Source: Escherichia coli (GTDB lineage Bacteria > Pseudomonadota > Gammaproteobacteria > Enterobacterales > Enterobacteriaceae). From it: 64,000 nt of DNA. Under the pieces are notes generated by a model. The model worked only from the letters and a program-made list of their open reading frames with translations, made no database searches and had not been told where the DNA came from. Made by a program: the position numbers and the translations under genes. Shown piece by piece: positions 8,803-47,848 of the stretch (within the stretch, counting starts at the first letter, position 1; every line of letters begins with the position of its first letter). Location: the NCBI RefSeq assembly GCF_024223415.1, contig NZ_CP100500.1. One strand, written 5' to 3'.

Positions 8803-10761
8803 TTACGCCGTACATTTCACCAGACCGCGGTGATCAACTGGCGCGACACCGGCGTCAATACGCACTTTCGTTGTCACGCCATCCACACTGAAGCCCTCCA
8901 TCTGATCAATATATGGCGTATCCACACCGTTGAGATAAGCCACTTCAATCGTATCGGAGCCTTTTGACGCAGCCAGGTAGAAGGTGGTCTGGCTGTTATC
9001 ATCAAGACGAGGCTCTGCAATAACGGTCGCAAAATCTTTCACCGGGTTAATAATACCGGCGTTAATGTCAGCCCCCTTGACACTTGAGGAGCGAATGACC
9101 TGGTTAGCAACAGACTCCATCGCCGTCGGTACCAGTACGAACGCAGGACGAATATTCAGATGACGCTCCCCCTCTTTCTGAACACGCATCAACTGGCGGG
9201 CTTTATCCAGCGATGCCACGTCCATTGCAGCGTCCTCCAGTACGTTTGCATGTTTCGCTTTATCGAACAGACTTACATTATCTGTGGAGATTTTCGGGTT
9301 AGACGTCAGAATGGCATAAACCAGATCGGCAATAGTGGATTTCGCCGCACGGCCCAGCTTCATCGGGACATCGGTCAGCATATTCAGATCATCATTGATA
9401 ATGGCCTGACGGGTGATACTGAACAGCTCGCCATAGGTCGCCAGTGCAATAGTGGCCTGTTTATCTCCGGTGGTGACGTATTTATATTCCGCCCCTTCAC
9501 GCACCTGACGCAGAGCACTGAAGCCCCCTATACCCACGCGATGGGCAATTTTAAAATCAGACAACTGACCTTTCCGCGTCCACTGTTCATAGGTTTCAGG
9601 GGCATCTTCCCAGCCCTGCAGAATGGCTTTGTTCGCAACATCCAGCAGAATATTACCGAAGTCAGACGTACTGTGTGTGAACGCCGCACCGACCATCTGC
9701 ATCGGGTTATAACCGGAAACCCCAATACCCCGTTCAGTCAGTGACATACGGGCATATTCACGCAGGGTCATCCCGTTGTAGACATTATCACGTTCGGTTT
9801 TTTCAAATCCGGCACGCGCCATCAGCGCCTGGCGGATCCCGTCCCCCACAAAATTACCGTTACCGGCATAAATATGAGCCGGGGTATTTTTATTGGATGG
9901 CGTGGACTCGCGCCCCATCTCGTTCAACAGCTTTTCGCGGGCCTGCTCCAGCGAACATTCAGGATCGGCAAGACACTGAGCCTGCAGCGTCTGATAACGC
10001 CCGCCAAACATGGCAAACAGATCATTAATACCGTTTACACGCGCTTTTTGCTCTGCCAGTACCTGCGCACGGATACTGTTTTCATCCACCACGGGTGCTG
10101 CTGCCTGCACTGGCGTCCGGGAGGCTGCAGGTTCATTATCCTGTACGCGTGGAGCACTGTTGCGTGGCGGAGTAATCATGTTTCGAATGGATTCCGGCAT
10201 CTTTTTAAATTCCTCTGTACGTTTTGACTGAATACATGCCATTGCCTTAACGGCTGGCGTCACCTGATCAGCAAATCCATGTGCCAGACATTCGGCACCG
10301 GACATCCAGGTCTCATCCGCCAGCATGGCAGCAATTTCATCGGTGGTTTTCCCGGTTTTCTGTGCATAAGCGGGTAACAGAACCGCCTCAACCTTATCGA
10401 GCAGGTCGGCATAGGTGCGCATGTCCTCCGCATCACCGCCCGTAAAGCCAAATGGTTTATGAATCATCATGAAGGTGTTTTCCGGCATAATGACCGGTTT
10501 TCCCACCATCGCAATGACCGACGCCATTGACGCCGCCACACCGTCGACATAAACGGTAATGGACGCACCATGTGTTTTCAGCGCATTAAAAATGGCGATG
10601 CCTTCAAAGACATCGCCACCCGGTGAATTGATATGGAGATTAATGTGGGTGATATCGCCCAGTGCATTCAGATCACTGATAAACTGCTTCGCTGTAACAC
10701 CCCAGAAACCAATCTCGTCATAAATATAAATATCCGCGTCACTCTGGTGACCAGCCTGCAT
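8803..10761 (-). CDS. Head maturation protease (ClpP/S14-like) fused to major capsid protein
   Basis: N-terminal region IYIYDEIGFWGVTAKQF...HINSPGGDVFEGIAIFNALK...MASVIAMVGKPV is ClpP-like; about 450 aa C-terminal domain; lies between portal and head-tail genes; start set at MQAGHQSD (ORF extends to 11022). Confidence 0.7.
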   Translation of the reverse strand: MQAGHQSDADIYIYDEIGFWGVTAKQFISDLNALGDITHINLHINSPGGDVFEGIAIFNALKTHGASITVYVDGVAASMASVIAMVGKPVIMPENTFMMIHKPFGFTGGDAEDMRTYADLLDKVEAVLLPAYAQKTGKTTDEIAAMLADETWMSGAECLAHGFADQVTPAVKAMACIQSKRTEEFKKMPESIRNMITPPRNSAPRVQDNEPAASRTPVQAAAPVVDENSIRAQVLAEQKARVNGINDLFAMFGGRYQTLQAQCLADPECSLEQAREKLLNEMGRESTPSNKNTPAHIYAGNGNFVGDGIRQALMARAGFEKTERDNVYNGMTLREYARMSLTERGIGVSGYNPMQMVGAAFTHSTSDFGNILLDVANKAILQGWEDAPETYEQWTRKGQLSDFKIAHRVGIGGFSALRQVREGAEYKYVTTGDKQATIALATYGELFSITRQAIINDDLNMLTDVPMKLGRAAKSTIADLVYAILTSNPKISTDNVSLFDKAKHANVLEDAAMDVASLDKARQLMRVQKEGERHLNIRPAFVLVPTAMESVANQVIRSSSVKGADINAGIINPVKDFATVIAEPRLDDNSQTTFYLAASKGSDTIEVAYLNGVDTPYIDQMEGFSVDGVTTKVRIDAGVAPVDHRGLVKCTA

Positions 10762-21454: not shown

Positions 21455-21847
21455 TTATTTCGGACAATCAGCATCCATCTCCAATCGGAGATCCAACACC
21501 ATCAGCATGCCCTCCACTACGCCCTCAGCTTTCTGGAGCATCCTGCCAACCCAACAATCAGATCGCCCATGCTTACGTGCAAGCGCCATAAAAGTCATGC
21601 CGCCGACATAATAGTCCACCAATAAATCATGCAAATCGCTGTTGTTTTTTTTCAGGCGAGCCATACATCCACAAATGATCATCGCGTCATCGTCACAACA
21701 TTGCGGGCGAGATTTTACTTTTGAAGGAATTAATCCCTTAAAACCGGCGGCAATGGACGACCAGGTCACATCTTCATGATTATTAGCCGCCCACGCTCCC
21801 CAACGCTCAAGAACCATCTGAATATCACGCATCAACTTTCTCCACAA
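21455..21847 (-). CDS. Q: Late antiterminator Q (phage 21/82-type)
   Basis: 130 aa with Cys-rich zinc-binding region ([16 protein letters not shown]...CWVGRML); followed by terminator; start may be MRDIQ at 21832. Confidence 0.8.
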
Positions 21848-26814: not shown

Positions 26815-27429
26815 TCATGCGTTAGTTTCTCCACAACCAGAAGCAATCGACGCCACGACGCCCGGAGCTGCACACTCGCGGGCGTCATTACTTTCTGAAA
26901 TGCAAAAGATTTTGTAGACCAGTGCTGCATGCTCCTGCAGCTTCGAAATTGAGAGATACAGCTCGTCGTTAATTGCTGTCTTCTCATGCGGTTCCACTAC
27001 ACCGTCTTCGATTGCTGAACGAATCTGTTTTGAATAACTGCCGATCTGTTCAATGACTTCCAGCAGACGCTGGTTAATATCGGCGTTGTCCACATCCTCG
27101 ACGTCAGGAAGAGACACAAAGACGCCATTTGCAGACTGCGCCACAGCGTCAGCAATGAAGTGAGTTCCACCAGCACGTTGCAAAATCATTGCCCATCCCA
27201 GCGGGAAAATCTGATCGCCATCGGCACGAAGGCGGTTAAATAATGCGTTCTCTGTTACATCCAGCCAGTCAGCTGCTTCAGCGTAACCACCCGGCAACTT
27301 TGCGATAGTTTTTCTGACAGCTTTCACGTACCACTCAGGCTGTTTTTCTACTTTCCAGTGATGCTTACCCACGGTTAGCCTCATCGTTCTGTGGTTTCTG
27401 TTAATCGATTTATCCATTAGATTTTTCAT
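26815..27429 (-). CDS. YdaT-like regulatory protein (CII-position gene), start uncertain
   Basis: ORF immediately downstream of Cro-like gene; Rac-type racR/ydaS/ydaT arrangement; candidate starts at 27429, 27417, 27384 (ORF extends to 27486). Confidence 0.45.
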
Positions 27430-27610
27430 AAAGCTCAGGTTTAAATGGCAACCGTCCGCAAGTTCTATATGCAGCTTCTGCTGCACGTCCTTTTGGAATT
27501 AACTGGCCCGGACGGTTTCGCCACTGATAAACGGCTTCAGTTGTTATGCCGAAAAAAGCAGCAACTTTCTCAATACTGCCGAAGTAGCTTTCGATATCGT
27601 CAGTTGTCAT
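27410..27610 (-). CDS. cro: Cro-like repressor (YdaS-type HTH)
   Basis: 66 aa HTH protein (FGITTEAVYQWRNRPGQ) divergent from cI across an operator region. Confidence 0.7.
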   Translation of the reverse strand: MTTDDIESYFGSIEKVAAFFGITTEAVYQWRNRPGQLIPKGRAAEAAYRTCGRLPFKPELYEKSNG

Positions 27611-27707: not shown

Positions 27708-28334
27708 ATGGAAACGGTTGGTCAGCGTATAAAAGCTCTGAGAAGAGTTACCAGAACGTCCCAGAAAGAATTGGGTAAATTTTGTGGAGTAAGCGACGTT
27801 GCTGTGGGGTACTGGGAGAAAGACATCAATACCCCTGGTGGGGAGGCACTTTCGAAATTAGCGAAGTTCTTCAATACGTCAATAGATTACATTCTTTATG
27901 GTGCTGAGTTTGAAGGCAAACTCGTCACAAACATGCGCAGAGTTCCTGTAATATCGTGGGTTCAGGCTGGGCAGTTTACTGAGTGCAGGGCAGCAGAAGT
28001 GTTTAGTGAAGTGGACAAGTGGGTAGATACATCATTAAAGGTTGGTGATAACTCATTTGCATTAGAGGTTAAAGGTGACTCCATGACTAACCCTAATGGC
28101 CTCCCAACAATACCAGAAGGCGCAACAGTGATTGTAGATCCAGATGCAGAACCTCGTCATGGAAAAATAGTCATCGCTCGACTTGATGGAACAAACGAAG
28201 CTACAGTAAAAAAATTAGTCATCGATGGCCCTCAAAAGTTTTTAGTGCCATTAAATCCTCGGTATCCCAACATCCCTATCAATGGTAATTGCCTTATCAT
28301 TGGTGTAGTCAAAGGAGTTCAATACGAACTCTAA
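27708..28334 (+). CDS. cI: CI-like prophage repressor (HTH_XRE + S24 peptidase)
   Basis: 208 aa; N-terminal HTH; C-terminal LexA-like autocleavage domain with GDSM and KKL catalytic motifs. Confidence 0.9.
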   Translation: METVGQRIKALRRVTRTSQKELGKFCGVSDVAVGYWEKDINTPGGEALSKLAKFFNTSIDYILYGAEFEGKLVTNMRRVPVISWVQAGQFTECRAAEVFSEVDKWVDTSLKVGDNSFALEVKGDSMTNPNGLPTIPEGATVIVDPDAEPRHGKIVIARLDGTNEATVKKLVIDGPQKFLVPLNPRYPNIPINGNCLIIGVVKGVQYEL

Positions 28335-28339
28335 GGCCT

Positions 28340-28415
28340 CTCTTCTCTAACTAAGGCACCGAACTAAGAAAAGTTTGGTGTTTTCTCTTGCCATAATAAC
28401 TAAGTTAAGTTAGAT
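28340..28415 (+). promoter_or_regulatory. OL/pL-like operator region downstream of cI
   Basis: Recurrence of ACTAAG operator-like half-sites (about 28350, 28363, 28400) as in the cro-cI intergenic region. Confidence 0.4.
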
Positions 28416-28499
28416 TTTATATCAAAGATAACGAACAGGCAGGACGCCCACGAAGTAGCCGCCTGGGGCATATAAAGTCCAGGATGATTCGTTAGCAAC

Positions 28500-28521
28500 A
28501 AAAAAGCGCCCTACAGGACGC
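28500..28521 (-). terminator. Intrinsic terminator of the antisense immunity-region gene
   Basis: Minus strand GCGTCC-TGTA-GGGCGC hairpin followed by TTTTTT, 44 nt downstream of the ORF stop. Confidence 0.5.
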
Positions 28522-28564
28522 TTAGCTCTTTAACAATCTGGGTATCATCCAACCAATGCAAGAT

Positions 28565-29086
28565 TTAAGGAATCCAAGGCGAATTCAGATCTCGCCCCAA
28601 CTCACGTAATGATCTTGGTCGTTCGTACATCGGATTTTTTTCCATAAGAAATTTATTTTCACAGTGAAGGCAACGGCTTGTAAGAAAATGAGAAGTTTTA
28701 CCTACTGGAAGCGGATGAAGTATCGATTTTATATTTTTGGAATAACAAAGTGGGCACAGATGCACAGTTATTTCTTTTCCACTCACAATTTCATTTTTAG
28801 AGTAAACAAAAGCACCAGAGTCAAGCTGATCAAGGACATATCCTTCTACCTTGGCACAAAAATCTTCAAACTCTGCAATTTTTGCTTTGAGATGCATCAC
28901 CTCTTCATCACGAAGGCGGATCGCATCGCCAAGAGAGAAGCATTCTGCCTGAAGCGTGATTAGTTTGTTCTGGAGTTCAATGGTTGCAGCTTTAACTTCT
29001 GCATCCGTTTTCGCGTCATTAATAACCTTAGCAAGACCGGCAGTCTCCTTTATAGCGGCCATAGCCGCAGACAGTTCAGCTATCAC
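28565..29086 (-). CDS. Hypothetical coiled-coil / zinc-ribbon protein (antisense cargo gene in immunity region)
   Basis: 173 aa; Ala/Lys/Glu-rich helical N-terminus; C-terminal CPLCYS...CLHCENKF two-CxxC motif; AT-rich; own terminator. Confidence 0.55.
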   Translation of the reverse strand: MIAELSAAMAAIKETAGLAKVINDAKTDAEVKAATIELQNKLITLQAECFSLGDAIRLRDEEVMHLKAKIAEFEDFCAKVEGYVLDQLDSGAFVYSKNEIVSGKEITVHLCPLCYSKNIKSILHPLPVGKTSHFLTSRCLHCENKFLMEKNPMYERPRSLRELGRDLNSPWIP

Positions 29087-29089
29087 GTT

Positions 29090-29555
29090 GAATACTCAGC
29101 TAGTTGTTGGGGATATCCAGATTAACCAAATCCTTGTTGTTGGGGAATAACTAGGTCCACCTCGCCTGATGTGGCTAAAAGCAGGCACATAACAGCTAAG
29201 TATTTTCAACCAGAGAGAATCCTTAGCGTTGTGGTGAATGCGGCTCAGCGCACGCGGGTTAAGGTTGAGGCTGACAGTCGACCTTCTGTGGATACCCACC
29301 CGCCTGGTGTGCAACCTTCGCCAGGCACCGGGAGGCACCCGGCACCACAACTTTATGCTGTGTGTAGTCCTGGCGGTACCAGCTTGTACCCTTGCTTCCG
29401 GCTGGTACCGTCCTTTTTACAAAACAGAGAAGAGCATCACCGGACGACGGGCTCATAACCCAATCCATCCGGGCGGCAGTCACCGCAGGTGTTCTTCTCT
29501 GTTTTGTGGAGAAACTAACCGACCTTGCAGGGTCGATATGATGAGGAGCAGCAAA
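29090..29555 (+). other. GC-rich structured leader with multiple long inverted repeats (candidate antitermination/ncRNA element)
   Basis: Inverted repeats CGGTACCAGC/GCTGGTACCG (10 bp), CAAAACAGAGAAGA/TCTTCTCTGTTTTG (about 14 bp), CACCGGG/CCCGGCACC, and duplicated TTGTTGTTGGGGA; no convincing ORF. Confidence 0.3.
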
Positions 29556-29918
29556 ATGGCTAGCGAACGCAGTACTGATGTGCAGGCATTTATCGGGGAG
29601 CTGGACGGCGGCGTATTTGAAACCAAAATCGGCGCAGTTCTCAGTGAAGTCGCTTCCGGTGTGATGAACACGAAAACCAAAGGTAAGGTCTCGCTCAACC
29701 TAGAAATCGAACCGTTTGATGAGAACCGAGTGAAAATCAAACACAAACTCTCATATGTTCGCCCGACTAACCGCGGGAAAATTTCCGAAGAAGACACCAC
29801 CGAAACGCCGATGTATGTCAATCGCGGTGGTCGCCTGACTATTCTGCAGGAAGACCAGGGACAATTACTGACTCTTGCCGGTGAGCCTGACGGAAAACTC
29901 CGCGCAGCAGGTCGTTAA
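29556..29918 (+). CDS. YfdP-like early-left protein
   Basis: 120 aa from MASERSTDVQAF... with AGGAG RBS 7 nt upstream; directly precedes YfdQ/YfdR-like genes. Confidence 0.5.
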   Translation: MASERSTDVQAFIGELDGGVFETKIGAVLSEVASGVMNTKTKGKVSLNLEIEPFDENRVKIKHKLSYVRPTNRGKISEEDTTETPMYVNRGGRLTILQEDQGQLLTLAGEPDGKLRAAGR

Positions 29919-29983
29919 TATCGTTCTTAATAAACTGATTATTTATCTCATCACTGAATATCTTTATATAGTGAGGACTTATT

Positions 29984-30808
29984 ATGTCTCAGAACTTAGA
30001 CGCAACCGCAATTAATCAAATCCATGCCCTTATTTCTGCTCAGGGTGTTAATGAAATTATCAGTAAGATTGGTGCCGATGCTGTGGCATTGCCTGAGAAT
30101 TTCCGCATTCATGATCTGGAAAAACTTAATTTAAATCGCTTCCGTTTCCGTGGTGCGCTTTCCACTGCCAGCATCGATGACTTTACCCGTTATTCTAAAG
30201 ATCTTGCAGATGAAGGCACCCGCTGCTTTATCGATGCCGATAATATGCGAGCCGTCAGTGTGCTTAACCTGGGTACTATTGATGAACCAGGTCACGCAGA
30301 TAACACCGCCACTCTCAAACTGAAAAAGACAGCACCGTTCTCTGCCCTGTTGTCTGTTAACGGCGAGCGTAACTCCCAGAAGTCACTGGCAGAATGGATT
30401 GAAGACTGGGCCGACTACCTTGTGGGCTTTGATGCTAATGGTGACGCCATTCAGGCAACCAAAGCGGCTGCGGCGATCCGTAAAATCACAATTGAAGCGA
30501 ACCAGACCGCTGATTTTGAAGATAATGACTTCAGCGGCAAACGCTCCCTGATGGAGTCTGTCGAAGCGAAGACCAAAGACATTATGCCAGTGGCATTTGA
30601 ATTTAAATGCGTTCCGTTTGAAGGTCTGAAAGAACGTCCGTTTAAATTACGCCTCAGCATTATCACTGGCGATCGTCCTGTACTGGTACTACGCATTATT
30701 CAGCTGGAAGCAGTGCAGGAGGAAATGGCTAACGAATTTCGTGATCTGCTTGTTGAGAAGTTCAAAGACAGCAAAGTAGAAACCTTTATTGGTACTTTCA
30801 CCGCCTGA
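29984..30808 (+). CDS. YfdQ-like protein (DUF2303)
   Basis: 274 aa; size and order match the CPS-53 yfdQ/yfdR arrangement as recalled. Confidence 0.6.
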
Positions 30809-30936
30809 TTTCATTACTGCAAATGCCCCTGCGGGGGCATTTATGGAAACGTAATTGACTCAATATTCGCCTGATGGCGAGGTTTTTCTTTAACCAAATT
30901 TCAGCGCGGTGCAGCGCATATAACGTGGAGAACAAA

Positions 30937-31473
30937 ATGTCATTTATTAAAACTTTTTCCGGGAAGCATTTTTATTATGACAGGATAAATAAAGACAACA
31001 TCGATATTAACGATATCGCGGTTTCCCTTTCAAATATCTGTCGCTTTGCAGGACATCTTTCACACTTCTACAGCGTCGCCCAACATGCGGTGCTTTGCAG
31101 CCAGCTGGTACCGCAGGAATTTGCTTTTGAAGCGTTAATGCATGATGCAACAGAAGCTTATTGTCAGGACATCCCCGCGCCACTGAAACGCCTTCTTCCT
31201 GACTATAAACGGATGGAAGAAAAAATAGACGCCGTAATCCGTGAGAAATACGGGTTACCCCCGGTTATGAGCACGCCTGTGAAATATGCCGATCTCATCA
31301 TGCTGGCAACCGAACGCCGCGATCTCGGGCTTGATGATGGCTCTTTCTGGCCTGTACTGGAAGGCATCCCGGCAACAGAGATGTTCAACGTGATTCCACT
31401 GGCACCGGGCCATGCCTACGGGATGTTTATGGAACGTTTTAACGAGTTATCGGAGTTACGCAAATGCGCATGA
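30937..31473 (+). CDS. YfdR-like HD-domain phosphohydrolase
   Basis: From MSFIKTFSGKHFYY...; HD-type His/Asp residues (…FAGHLSHFYSVAQHAV…MHDATEAY…). Confidence 0.65.
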   Translation: MSFIKTFSGKHFYYDRINKDNIDINDIAVSLSNICRFAGHLSHFYSVAQHAVLCSQLVPQEFAFEALMHDATEAYCQDIPAPLKRLLPDYKRMEEKIDAVIREKYGLPPVMSTPVKYADLIMLATERRDLGLDDGSFWPVLEGIPATEMFNVIPLAPGHAYGMFMERFNELSELRKCA

Positions 31474-31742
31474 ATGTTTTCGAAATGGAAGGGTTTCTTC
31501 GTGGGAGATGTGTACCGCGAGATCTGAAAGTGAATGAAACAGATGCTGAATACCTAGTGCGCAAATTCGATGCGCTTGAAGCTAAATGTGCAGCACAGGA
31601 AAACAAAGCAATACCAGTGTCAACTGAACTGCCACCAGCAAATGAAAGTGTTTTGTTATTCGATGCTAACGGAGAAGGCTGGCTAATTGGCTGGTGTTCT
31701 CTCTGGTACACCTGGGGACAAAAAGAAACCGGAGAATGGTAG
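31464..31742 (+). CDS. Hypothetical early protein
   Basis: 92 aa ORF overlapping the upstream stop (coupled). Confidence 0.35.
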   Translation: MRMNVFEMEGFLRGRCVPRDLKVNETDAEYLVRKFDALEAKCAAQENKAIPVSTELPPANESVLLFDANGEGWLIGWCSLWYTWGQKETGEW

Positions 31743-31825
31743 TGGACATTTCAGGTCGGGGACCTTGAAAACGTCAATATCACTCACTGGGCAGTAATGC
31801 CAAAAGCACCGGAGGCTGGAGCATA

Positions 31826-32131
31826 ATGACCACATTTACCAATAAAGGACTGATTAAAGAAATCAAAGAACGAATCAGCAGCCTAGATGTTCGAGACGAT
31901 ATTGAGCGCCGTGCTTATGAAATCGCACTCGTATCTCTGGAAGTAGAGCCAGATGAACGCGAAGCCTATGAATTATTCATGGAAAAGCGTTTCGGTGACT
32001 TAGTAGATCGTCGGAGAGCAAAAAACGGCGATAACGAATACATGGCATGGGATATGACTCTCGGTTGGATCGTCTGGCAGCAACGAGCTGGTATCCATTT
32101 TTCAACAATGACACAGCAAGAGGTGAAATAA
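31826..32131 (+). CDS. Hypothetical early protein
   Basis: 101 aa ORF upstream of xis. Confidence 0.35.
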   Translation: MTTFTNKGLIKEIKERISSLDVRDDIERRAYEIALVSLEVEPDEREAYELFMEKRFGDLVDRRRAKNGDNEYMAWDMTLGWIVWQQRAGIHFSTMTQQEVK

Positions 32132-32502
32132 TGGAGCCATACAGCCTCACACTCGATGAGGCCTGTCAGTTTCTTAAGATATCCAGACCAACCGCCACCA
32201 ACTGGATACGAACAGGCCGCCTACAGGCAACACGTAAAGATCCAACCAAGCCAAAATCTCCTTACCTCACAACACGGCAAGCCTGCATTGCGGCGCTTCA
32301 GTCTCCGCTGCATACTGTCCAGGTGAGCGCGGGTGATGGCATAACAGAGGAAAGAAAATGTCACTCTTCCGCAGAAATGAAATATGGTATGCCTCGTATT
32401 CGCTCCCGGGCGGGAAACGAATTAAGGAATCTCTTGGCACAAAGGACAAGCGGCAAGCTCAGGAGTTGCACGACAAGCGAAAAGCAGAACTCTGGCGAGT
32501 AG
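32131..32502 (+). CDS. xis: Excisionase (AlpA/Xis-type HTH), unusually extended C-terminus
   Basis: From [35 protein letters not shown]; frame stays open to 32502, overlapping int start by about 145 nt. Confidence 0.5.
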
Positions 32503-33521
32503 AAAAGCTAGGGGATTTACCTGATGTCACTTTTGAAGAGGCCTGCCTAAGATGGCTTGAGGAAAAAGCTGATAAAAAATCTCTCGATTCAGATAAAAGC
32601 CGGATTGAGTTCTAGCTTGAACATTTTGAGGGTATAAGGCTTAAAGATATCTCGGAGGCAAAGATTTACTCTGCTGTAAGCAGAATGCATAACAGAAAGA
32701 CGAAAGAAATATGGAAACAGAAAGTTCAGGCCGCCATCAGGAAAGGTAAAGAACCGCCTGTTTATGAACCAAAGCCAGTATCAACTCAGACAAAGGCAAA
32801 GCATCTTGCCATGATAAAGGCCATTCTCCGTGCTGCAGAACGCGACTGGAAGTGGCTGGAAAAAGCGCCTGTCATCAAGATACCAGCGGTCAGAAACAAG
32901 CGAGTCAGATGGCTGGAAAAGGAGGAAGCAAAACGCCTTATTGATGAGTGCCCCGAACCACTGAAATCTGTCGTCAAGTTTGCGCTGGCAACTGGTCTGA
33001 GAAAGTCGAACATCATAAATCTGGAATGGCAACAAATCGACATGCAGCGACGAGTTGCCTGGGTGAATCCAGAAGAGAGCAAATCAAACCGCGCCATTGG
33101 TGTGGCGCTGAACGATACCGCCTGTAAAGTGTTGCGTGATCAAATAGGCAAGCATCACAAATGGGTGTTTGTACATACCAAGGCGGCTAAGCGAGCAGAT
33201 GGAACATCAACGCCTGCGGTCAGGAAGATGCGCATCGACAGCAAGACATCATGGCTATCAGCTTGTCGTCGTGCAGGAATTGAAGATTTCCGTTTCCATG
33301 ACCTCAGACACACCTGGGCAAGCTGGCTGATCCAGTCAGGCGTCCCATTATCAGTGCTTCAGGAAATGGGCGGATGGGAGTCCATAGAAATGGTTCGTAG
33401 GTATGCTCACCTTGCGCCTAATCATTTGACAGAGCATGCAAGGAAAATAGACGACATTTTTGGTGATAATGTCCCAAATATGTCCCACTCTGGAATTATG
33501 GAGGATATAAAGAAGGCGTAA
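32358..33521 (+). pseudogene. intD: Tyrosine integrase (IntD-type) interrupted by in-frame TAG at codon 86
   Basis: [19 protein letters not shown]...SRIEF then TAG at 32613-32615, then the same frame continues [11 protein letters not shown]... to the catalytic domain (…HDLRHTWAS…RYAHL…). Confidence 0.8.
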
Positions 33522-33536
33522 CTGATTGAATTGTAA

Positions 33537-33613
33537 TGGCGCGCCCTGCAGGATTCGAACCTGCGGCCCACGACTTAGAAGGTCGTTGCTCTATCCAACT
33601 GAGCTAAGGGCGC
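33537..33613 (-). tRNA. argU: tRNA-Arg (anticodon UCU)
   Basis: 77-nt cloverleaf on minus strand, anticodon loop CTTCTAAGT, T-arm GGTTCGAATCC, 3' CCA; immediately downstream of int. Confidence 0.9.
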
Positions 33614-46816: not shown

Positions 46817-46832
46817 CCTGGTGCTCATTTGA

Positions 46833-46925
46833 TTGCCGGATGCGGCGTGAACGCCTTATCCGGCCTACACCGCTCCGGTACCCATTGTAGGCCTGATAAG
46901 ACGCGTCAAGCGTCGCATCAGGCAT
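46833..46925. repeat. REP/BIME extragenic palindromic repeats
   Basis: GCCGGATGCGGCGTGAACGCCTTATCCGGCCTAC and GTAGGCCTGATAAGACGCG...CGCATCAGGC REP-type palindromes between purK and ybcF. Confidence 0.65.
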
Positions 46926-46954
46926 GGTGCACCGATTGCTGGATGCTCTCATCA

Positions 46955-47848
46955 CTACAGCGAAATACAGGTCCCCGCTTCGCCCGCCAGCGTCTCTTCA
47001 ATTCGCGATAACGCCCCAATCCACGCGGGTTTACCACGGCTTCTGACATAACCACTCACCGCCGTTACCTTCGGCCCCATCGAACCATCGGCTTTGGCAA
47101 ATGGCGCTAACTCATCCGGTGTGGCATGGCGAATGGCACGTTGCTGCGGCGTTCCCCAGTTTTCATATACCGCATCAGCATCGGTGAGGATCACCAGTCC
47201 ATCTGCATTAATCTGCTCGGCGAGCAACGCAGCGGCGAGATCTTTATCAATCACCGCTTCACTCCCTGCTCCGTCATCCGTCACAGGCACACCGCCGCCG
47301 CCGCTGCAAATCACCACATGCCCCTCTTTGAGCAACAACTCGATGGCTTCGCTGTCGAGAATTTTACGCGGTTGCGGAGACGCCACCACCCGGCGCAAAT
47401 ATTTACCATCACGTTTCATCTGCCAGCCGTAAGCCGCTTCCAGTGCCTCTTGTTCTTCTGGCTGATAAACCGGACCAATAAATTTCTCTGGCTGCAAAAA
47501 CGCCGGATCATCAGGCGAAACTTCAATGCGCGTCAGCACCGTCGTGACAGGCGGCATCTGCGGCTGTGCGCTCAAACTCTGCGCCAGCATATAGCCAATC
47601 ATCCCCTGACTTTCTGCCACCAGCACATCCAGCGGATACGGTTCTACCTCTTTCCACGCCAGATTCTGCAATGCCAGCAACCCCACCTGCGGCCCGTTGC
47701 CGTGAACAATCGCCAGCCGATAAGAACGGGCCAGGCGCGCCAGCGCGGGTACAGCACTGGCGATATTGCGATATTGATTTTCTGCCGTCAGCGCCTCACC
47801 GCGCTGGAGTAAGGCGTTGCCCCCAAGAGCTACAACCAGTGTTTTCAT
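46955..47848 (-). CDS. ybcF: Carbamate kinase-like protein YbcF
   Basis: From [18 protein letters not shown]; amino-acid kinase family. Confidence 0.85.

Follow-up and report, generated by a model that had tools for sequence, protein, structure and literature searches.

Sequence evidence for a divergent STnc100-type RNA core and a DicF-like terminator unit in the early-left leader of an N-less Escherichia coli prophage

What takes the place of nutL and N in a lambdoid prophage that encodes no N protein? We investigated this question in Escherichia coli assembly GCF_024223415.1, using a stretch of 64,000 nucleotides (nt) of contig NZ_CP100500.1, hereafter the window. Positions 29090-29555 of the window separate an antisense gene for a 173-amino-acid protein from yfdP, the first early-left open reading frame (ORF), and thus fill the slot that nutL and N occupy in lambda, with the immunity region on one side and the first early-left gene on the other. 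The original prediction, made from the sequence alone, had seen here a structured, non-coding leader in an N-less phage, and folding, covariation and broken ORFs all bear out that description. It had further offered three possible identities, namely a cis-acting antitermination RNA of the HK022 put type, an RNA partner of the antisense gene, or a retron-like msr/msd. The comparisons described below instead assign the main element, as a divergent member, to the STnc100/PasD family of prophage RNAs, and the leader appears to be a chain of RNA modules, each conserved independently. We consider it slightly better than an even chance that 29090-29555 is the distal part of this leader, in which an STnc100-like core, a DicF-like terminator and a long hairpin together act as a generator of small RNAs (sRNAs) and an attenuator in the manner of dicBF. 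The STnc100 family is already known; what the comparisons would add is its early-left leader context, an undescribed conserved hairpin (element C) and a link to dicBF.

The region is conserved as RNA and not as protein. All four leader ORFs, including an in-frame upstream extension of yfdP, gain stop codons or non-triplet gaps in ST64B, mEp460 and three more leaders, and YfdP is intact across those same relatives at ~60% amino-acid identity. Comparison with homologous leaders gave no conserved ORF between the early-left promoter pL and yfdP, in agreement with the predicted lack of a coding frame, and conserved structure is present instead. The RefSeq/PGAP annotation places just a 'frameshifted hypothetical protein' over the leader. 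A PHROGs profile, phrog_3651 ('unknown function'), matches a minus-strand ORF at 29259-29483; because only the C-terminal half of the profile is covered and the ORF is interrupted in relatives, phrog_3651 is probably a gene-calling artefact over the conserved RNA. The G+C richness noted originally holds (0.53-0.57 in 29090-29555 versus 0.38-0.46 in the flanks), and the predicted fold of 29190-29560 has an energy of -162.4 kcal/mol (z = -7.35), which was equalled in none of 100 shuffles. BLAST searches against phages revealed mosaic edges, with homology to SfIV-like phages starting at 29103 and to SfV at 29157, an ST64B alignment over 29212-29519 (78% identity), and alignments of mEp460, cdtI and Stx2c phages from 29371 only. 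The conserved RNA is therefore placed, from these alignments, as beginning at ~29157. The leader was found in 2780 of 5426 complete E. coli genomes, with cI, yfdP and yfdQ as neighbours in an annotated example.

An Rfam search and a covariation analysis on homologous prophages, both proposed with the original prediction, were carried out; the former returned a divergent STnc100 match and, in the latter, the helices and a pseudoknot covary. The match to STnc100 (RF02076) extends over 29198-29421 and covers the entire model (1-206 of 206) with 42.4 bits, corresponding to E = 1.8e-7 in a 1.5-kilobase (kb) search and 7.8e-6 over the whole window, where the Rfam scan gave no second STnc100 match. 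Relatives score in a similar range, with 39.5 bits for SfV, 35.1 for ST64B and 34.4 for the Qin prophage of K-12. Within the match, covariation and the Rfam alignment define a pseudoknotted multi-helix core on the plus strand at 29228-29351. It is composed of P1 (29228-36/29343-51), P2 (~29240-59), P5 (29302-07/29321-26) and P6 (29328-32/29338-42), with a pseudoknot between AAGGUUG (29261-67) and CAACCUU (29312-18). P6 is the CACCGGG.../CCCGGCACC repeat that had been picked out before, a hairpin of 5 base pairs (bp) with the loop AGGCA, and it lies within a 21-nt motif, ACCGGGAGGCACCCGGCACCA, present exactly at 29327-29347 together with the GGUGAAU junction. A 5' hairpin, GCUAAG.../...CUUAGC (29195-29227, plus strand), abuts the core; its ST64B equivalent reads GAUAAG.../...CUUAUC and represents a compensatory change.

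The wider core family was retrieved by scanning viral contigs for the 21-mer ACCGGGAGGCACCCGGCACCA, which yielded 120 DNA stretches with 62 distinct cores. Eight loci were scanned with Rfam, and the six of them that contain the 21-mer score 56-161 bits, i.e., they are canonical STnc100. Across the 62 distinct cores the order is P1, AAU, P2, pseudoknot strand, variable insert, P5 and P6. P1 consists of GUGGUG/CACCAC plus 3-5 variable pairs and is followed by the AAU junction, P2 carries the loop CUNNGCG, and the single-stranded segment after P2 pairs with the loop of the P5 hairpin. P6 is invariant as CCGGG-AGGCA-CCCGG, and the K-12 copy has a compensatory CCUGG/CCAGG. In a 19-sequence alignment, P1, P2, P5 and P6 are 88.1% paired with a covariation of 0.292, compared with 0.126 for shuffled alignments (none of 500 reached the observed value) and at most 0.141 when the helices were slid. 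MAFFT misaligned the P5 and pseudoknot strands, so that P5 is under-counted in this alignment, and we therefore assessed both with our own script rather than with the pair-count tool. This gave 18 arm combinations for P1 and ~25 for P5, nearly all of them complementary. The pseudoknot, which the Rfam model omits, occurs in at least nine different complementary versions among 40 distinct variants, including CCAGUC/GACUGG, AUCAGC/GCUGAU, ACUGGCGG/UUGCCAGU and AGACUGACA/UGUCAGUCU; cognate strands form on average 6.7 contiguous pairs versus 4.6 for non-cognate combinations.

The window core shares with STnc100 the full-length alignment, the 21-nt motif, GGUGAAU, all four helices and the pseudoknot, as well as an intrinsic terminator downstream and a prophage location. 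It differs by its place in a divergent subgroup, whose P2 is GCG/CGC instead of CCCC/GGGG, by other pseudoknot sequences and by a longer interior. Several canonical copies have a sigma-70 promoter that ends ~5-10 nt before GUGGUGAAU, most are then followed by a terminator, and they stand alone in late regions near stx, nanS-p or lysis genes; from this layout they look like stand-alone small-RNA genes. In contrast, the window core has no adjacent sigma-70 promoter, with the 5' hairpin in the place where several canonical copies have theirs, and it lies ~800 nt into an early-left leader. Eleven STnc100 copies are transcribed in O157:H7 EDL933, one of them confirmed on a northern blot (PMC5331693). 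One STnc100 copy sits 75 nt after stx2B (PMC12370729) and overlaps the Hfq-binding sRNA EcOnc27/sRNA103 (PMC12711010). PasD1 and PasD2 of enteropathogenic E. coli, abundant sRNAs in Hfq RIL-seq (in which interacting RNAs are ligated and sequenced), are structural relatives of STnc100 (bioRxiv 10.64898/2026.05.13.724894).

Related arrangements were seen in other loci. Leader types 2 (L004 2858-2990, L226, L228, L219) and 3 (L222, L223) have the same slot and closing helix, GUUGUGGUGAAU.../...CACCACAAC, with other interiors, and none of these RNAs was reported by Rfam in the loci scanned, namely L004 (type 2), L222 and L223 (both type 3). The type 2 P2 loop, GCUGAU, and the loop of the last hairpin, GAUCAGC, are complementary in sequence, suggestive of a kissing interaction. 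In L031 (1636) a pL-type promoter is followed within a few nt by the 5' half of a type 2 core, and in L110 (~10277-10600) a core stands directly before a small hydrophobic ORF (MQILQLIFDHPVFTIVLLLVV...) with no intervening terminator.

Directly downstream of the core lies a DicF-like unit (29352-29418, plus strand) consisting of a conserved, single-stranded motif, GCUGUGUGUAGUC (29357-69), a 13-bp intrinsic terminator (29372-29412) and a U-run. The terminator contains the 10-bp inverted repeat CGGTACCAGC/GCTGGTACCG of the original prediction, which is indeed perfect (29374-83 and 29401-10) and encloses a loop of 17 nt and not 19; it grows to a 13-bp stem that folds at -22 to -24 kcal/mol and is followed by UCCUUUUUAC. 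In many leaders with differing cores, GCUGUGUGUAGUC and a terminator of varying sequence are held at this same position. The 5' arm of the terminator, UGGCGGUACCAG, resembles that of DicF, UGGCGGUAUCAG, and the DicF model (RF00039) aligns at full length with the homologous leader L199 (34.3 bits, E = 1e-5; true DicF, 76.7 bits), an intermediate score that joins these leader terminators to DicF in a graded series. The comparison thus points to a weak relationship between the terminator unit and DicF, weaker than that of the core to STnc100. Complementary targets of GCUGUGUGUAGUC within the window occurred at chance level only. A pairing of GCUGUGUGUAGUC with the yfdP start region, seen in the minimum-energy fold, was dropped as it is not conserved in ST64B.

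The dicB operon of the Qin prophage is an early-left-type operon of a lambdoid prophage, and the 174-nt spacer from the DicF terminator to dicB in MG1655 contains a core of the same subgroup as the window core (34.4 bits, E = 5.5e-5). This K-12 core (NC_000913 1649452-1649583, equivalent to L249 2953-3084) has its own pseudoknot, CAGUUAA/UUAACUG, and an 11-bp P1 whose arms are 1649452-1649462 and 1649573-1649583. DicF arises by early intrinsic termination and RNase E processing, and RNase III cleaves a 72-nt species out of the full-length transcript (PMC9438474, citing Faubladier et al. 1990). This species is 19 nt longer than the annotated 53-nt DicF, so that its RNase III end would fall at the first P1 pairs of the K-12 core, a placement that is our own arithmetic and not taken from a publication. 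The window and Qin ydfABC-dicF-dicB have in common a lambdoid early-left-type operon with an internal sRNA unit, putative in the window, and an adjacent STnc100-type core, and the unit itself shares with DicF a single-stranded 5' part and a terminator beginning UGGCGGUAYCAG, with read-through to ORFs as a further, predicted similarity. They differ in the seed region, GCUGUGUGUAGUC in the window versus UUUCUGGUGACGUU in DicF, so that the targets should differ from those of DicF, and in their unrelated downstream genes, yfdP and dicB. As the same core subtype stands between dicF and dicB, a dicBF-like sRNA/attenuator unit is the best model for the window, whose leader may be a rearranged relative of the dicBF arrangement with a small-RNA unit, an STnc100-type fold and read-through to ORFs.

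The U-run of the terminator is followed by element C (29419-29507, plus strand), a three-way RNA with a ~20-bp basal stem, two apical hairpins and the conserved loop GACGGGCUCAUAACCCAAUCCA. It contains the ~14-bp repeat described in the original prediction, which forms the perfect centre of 25-nt arms at 29419-43 and 29483-507 (complementarity 84%). The 89-nt element folds at -45.5 kcal/mol (z = -8.26), and RNAalifold assigned 34 pairs to it from 16 diverse sequences, seven of which pairs show compensatory changes, and there is hardly any variation in the loop GACGGGCUCAUWACCCAAUCCA. In all leaders compared, element C starts right at the end of the terminator U-run, and its fold makes it a candidate RNase III or processing site before the first ORF. 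Lambda has an RNase III hairpin in its N leader, and a long RNase III-type hairpin before the first ORF is thus common to both phages. After a conserved GGAGAAAC follows a small G+C-rich hairpin (29518-29537, plus strand), kept in position and varying in sequence, and then the Shine-Dalgarno sequence GAGGAG and the ATG (29556) of yfdP (phrog_204; 29543-29558, plus strand). The order of core, motif, terminator, element C and yfdP remains constant while the sequences change.

We then asked where the transcript that carries these modules begins. A promoter scan predicted pL at 28388-28416 on the plus strand (TTGCCA-17-TAGATT), overlapping the operator-like palindrome CTAAGTTAAGTTAG; it is the sole good sigma-70 match on this strand and lies directly 3' of cI. 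Within the window, CTAAG-N(3-6)-TTAG palindromes are confined to OR (27623, 27672) and pL, four in total versus 0.68 expected, a number that was reached in none of 100 shuffles. A promoter at this position implies that the pL transcript begins near 28423, so that the yfdP start codon is reached after ~1.13 kb of untranslated RNA. The final ~470 nt of this RNA, 670-1130 nt into the predicted transcript, correspond to 29090-29555, which consequently does not adjoin the early-left promoter as the proposed nutL slot implied, and lies ~700 nt downstream of it.

The prophage is of the SfV/SfIV/ST64B lambdoid type and is inserted beside tRNA-Arg(UCU) (33540-33613, minus strand). It encodes cro (27410-27610) on the minus strand and cI (27708-28334) on the plus strand, and its early-left genes run from yfdP, yfdQ and yfdR to xis and int (29556-33521, plus strand). 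The right operon codes for CII-like, O-like and RusA proteins and a Q-like antiterminator (21455-21847). No member of the N family was found among the scanned early-region ORFs with PHROGs profiles, and tblastn with lambda N gave zero matches in the window or the retrieved loci, which upholds the claim that no N-like protein is encoded. The right operons of SfV, ST64B and mEp460 carry a C4 antisense RNA and isrK in the antirepressor region (L002 226-414, L003 409-597, L004 323-511), neither of which is present in the window phage. Two adjoining sub-threshold matches to naRNA4 (46831-46962, minus strand; 39-40 bits versus 59.5) lie in the host part of the window.

With pL located, the comparison to put can be made. 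The phages HK022 and HK639 resemble the window prophage in that they are lambdoid, lack N and open the early-left operon with a long structured RNA leader and terminators. We took as reference the put element (~70 nt, two stems, GNCGAACGGCGCG...UAAACCAUGCGUCGG...) read from HK022 and from the annotated putL of HK639, the record of which holds HK022-like put only. The region 29090-29555 shows no similarity to putL or putR of HK022 or to HK639 putL, it is present as a single copy in the window, and its core begins ~800 nt after the predicted pL start; the proposed identity with put is thus not upheld. Sensitive blastn of 29090-29560 and of 28380-28570 against HK022 returned chance matches only. 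The promoter-proximal position of put is taken here by a different RNA, element A, a 67-nt module with a closing helix P1 and a hairpin P3 (28429-28495, plus strand), which is not similar in sequence to put either.

To sample element A, we scanned viral contigs with its central 20-mer and obtained 120 DNA stretches with 101 distinct sequences. Twenty-six bases are invariant in this sample, of which 20 are fixed by the search pattern. In its helices 95.8% of cells are paired, and covariation is 0.561 compared with 0.139 shuffled and at most 0.145 slid. Element A lies 8-25 nt (in a few loci ~70 nt) downstream of strong pL-type promoters whose operators belong to at least ten unrelated sets, lambda-like and HK022-like among them, and at two loci with HK022-like operators it sits in the place of putL. 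The pL promoter block of the window also precedes it in several other loci. A covariance model detected exactly one copy per locus stretch searched, none in HK022, HK639 or mEp460 (at most 11 bits on HK022 and HK639), and no putR-like second copy in the window or 85 sources; no Rfam family matched element A. HK022, in contrast, has both putL and putR, and the window has element A and the STnc100-type core once each. Element C is found downstream in 60 of 96 distinct element A contexts, a sample biased by locus retrieval. A phage-encoded arginine-rich partner for element A was considered and rejected, as the 70-amino-acid ORF starting MNAAQRRKAYRK follows in only four loci. This ORF (L163, L129, L195, L165) has an arginine-rich N-terminus, MNAAQRRKAYRKHPKAG..., which recalls N-type RNA-binding motifs. 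ST64B-type leaders (L003 ~2737-2885) and many element A loci have a ~190-nt conserved non-coding block between element A and the core, closed by a long inverted repeat (GGUGUCUUCGGGAGGGG...CCCCGCCCGAAGAUACC) and without an Rfam match.

Downstream of element A in the window we identified a hairpin, AAGCGCCCUACAGGACGCUU, followed by an exact rrn-type boxA, GCUCUUUAACAAU (28525-28537; together 28504-28537, plus strand), ~100 nt after the pL transcript start. The K-12 rrsH leader carries the identical boxA 13-mer, which occurs just once in the window. Hairpin and boxA are kept together in 17 distinct sequences. They follow element A in the window and in 22 other distinct contexts, and exact matches read GCUCUUUAACAAUCUGG. 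On the minus strand the hairpin is the terminator of the 173-amino-acid gene. Homology stops right after AACAATCTGG and is succeeded by at least nine different downstream sequences, so that hairpin and boxA form a module of their own and not merely the terminator of the convergent gene. The hairpin has a 4-nt loop and precedes boxA, as in rrn leaders and unlike in lambda, from which the window also differs in having no N protein and no boxB with a GNRA-like pentaloop. Nus factors bound at boxA shield long untranslated RNAs from Rho (PMC7665894), and by analogy the module may give the untranslated pL leader of 1.13 kb the same Nus-factor (anti-Rho) protection. Taken together, element A is a candidate N-independent antitermination or leader element, and a put-like function, if there is any in this phage, more likely resides in 28429-28537 than in 29090-29555. 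In this form, and at a site upstream of the one proposed, the notion that an N-less phage relies on RNA for antitermination still stands.

At the other end of the antisense block, the 173-amino-acid gene (phrog_1244, PHROGs E = 2.7e-52; 28565-29086, minus strand) is a moron, an accessory gene acquired by insertion, whose product has a coiled-coil-like N-terminal part and a C-terminal CxxC...CxxC. It lies antisense within the pL transcription unit, and transcription from pL must collide with it or yield a 520-nt RNA antisense to it. Upstream of the gene are two direct copies of (C)T(A/T)GTTGTTGGGGA, 33 bp apart (29101-29146). They correspond to the duplicated TTGTTGTTGGGGA of the original prediction, which is exact at 29134-46 and has one mismatch at 29101-13; these are the only matches with up to one mismatch in the window, and those with three mismatches occur at chance level. 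The segment 29090-29156 including the TTGTTGTTGGGGA repeats travels with the gene block in other loci, and SfV homology starts at 29157. The repeat block is thus probably a control region upstream of the 173-amino-acid gene, outside the conserved RNA.

How might the modules work together? In the dicBF-like reading that we favour, derepression of pL would produce transcripts of which a part stop at ~29418 and yield an STnc100-like/DicF-like sRNA of the Hfq-binding prophage type, with the conserved linker motif GCUGUGUGUAGUC as its likely seed. The core P1 and element C would be probable RNase III sites that trim the sRNA from the leader and the mRNA and define where the yfdP mRNA begins. The remaining transcripts would read through, so that yfdP through xis and int are expressed; read-through may simply be leaky, a passive course that has been proposed for dicBF, or it may be raised by the upstream element A and boxA. 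Like ydfABC-dicF-dicB in its mode of action, the unit would generate an sRNA and would also present the early-left operon with its first terminator barrier (tL1).

Several observations weigh against this reading. The window core does not reach the STnc100 gathering threshold (42.4 versus 47 bits), and the DicF model gives only 15.9 bits (E = 2.5, 29359-29413) on the window at a threshold of 48. The analogy to Qin is inexact, as the order there is DicF before core and in the window core before the DicF-like unit. Scanning and inspection gave no convincing or conserved promoter adjoining the core; the best candidate found by eye, GAGAAT (29215-20), has no -35 hexamer and is not kept in ST64B. 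Unlike several canonical STnc100 genes, the core thus has no promoter next to it, which makes its expression in lysogens doubtful. That the 21-nt motif stays constant while the cores around it differ widely would be strange if it were simply part of an sRNA body, and it suggests a conserved partner that the sRNA model leaves unnamed; cleavage by RNase III is inferred from helix length and one size in the literature. K-12 CPS-53 is without the leader, homology there beginning only 16 nt before the yfdP ATG, and CPS-53 was discarded as an experimental proxy on this account.

In a rival reading the core is itself a cis-acting processive antiterminator, a functional put analogue that would modify RNA polymerase to pass the terminator 25 nt downstream and later ones. 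The phage is N-less yet has Q, the core is directly upstream of a terminator of conserved position in every leader (types 1, 2 and 3), several canonical copies have a promoter directly upstream and most have a terminator behind them, which is the layout of pL-putL-tL, mEp460 retains a core variant without element A, and a host partner that is itself conserved, RNA polymerase for example, is suggested by the constancy of the 21-nt motif. We nevertheless regard such a role as distinctly unlikely, because the core has no sequence similarity to the put elements of HK022 and HK639 and only one copy was found in the window, because in K-12 Qin and L110 it follows the terminator or has none and stands directly before an ORF, and because its relatives pile up as discrete terminated Hfq-bound RNAs (PMC5331693, PMC12711010), which implies that their own terminators work. 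Another account invokes processing and stability alone, with the modules as punctuation: RNase III and RNase E sites would separate the long leader from the yfdP mRNA and fix the 5' end of the latter, without any trans-acting RNA. Long perfect helices, namely P1 with P6 stacked on it and element C's ~20-bp stem, speak for it, as does the 72-nt RNase III product of DicF that maps to the homologous K-12 P1 (PMC9438474 and the arithmetic above). It leaves unexplained, however, the pseudoknot, the 21-nt motif and the placement of GCUGUGUGUAGUC beside a terminator, which is an sRNA-seed layout, and canonical relatives stand alone with nothing downstream to process; we judge it unlikely.

Could the core instead sense a ligand or factor? 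A complex fold with a junction, a pseudoknot, conserved junction and loop bases and covarying stems would suit an aptamer, with a terminator as the expression platform here and occlusion of the ribosome-binding site elsewhere, since cores are mostly joined to terminators and stand directly upstream of an ORF in K-12 dicB and L110. By eye, however, P1 and the terminator arms show no alternative pairing with each other, a metabolic theme is lacking in the heterogeneous phage genes downstream, and the longest unchanging stretch is a closed hairpin and not a junction pocket, which leaves an aptamer quite improbable. By far the least probable readings, prompted by the adjoining minus-strand gene and the nested inverted repeats, make the RNA a retron msr/msd or else a partner or antisense regulator for the 173-amino-acid gene. 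It is over 28565-29086, and not over 29090-29555, that the pL transcript runs antisense to this gene; the gene occurs in some relatives only, and the RNA is retained in SfV, which has another gene, and in ST64B, which has none. The leader occurs in 2780 E. coli genomes, and the scanned neighbours (cI, phrog_1244, yfdP and yfdQ) are not reverse transcriptases, and Rfam gave no retron match. A broader proposal is protein-independent, RNA-only control of the early-left operon, distinct from put, in which element A, with or without boxA, would load onto the polymerase and the core, with its constant 21-nt hairpin, would be a second cis sensor or a polymerase- or RNase-binding module that gates the DicF-like terminator and with it xis, int and other early-left genes; we place this at the same low level of probability as a put-like core.

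With these results STnc100/PasD is no longer confined to Stx-type late regions but also includes RNAs in early-left operons of SfV/ST64B-type phages and in the K-12 dicF-dicB spacer. The leader is present in about half of the complete E. coli genomes, yet annotation leaves it blank or calls a frameshifted pseudogene, and recognising its RNA modules clears away a spurious gene family and, within it, a PHROG that is likely to be spurious too. The core in the K-12 spacer provides a tractable model for what the STnc100-type fold does, and the leader suggests DicF-like sRNAs as common products of early-left leaders. The unannotated element A, sometimes followed by boxA, is a candidate for how N-less lambdoid phages that are not of the HK022 type pass early terminators and Rho. 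If RNA-only control were true, the many 'STnc100 sRNAs' known from Salmonella and pathogenic E. coli would have to be seen as terminated switch leaders and not as ordinary sRNAs.

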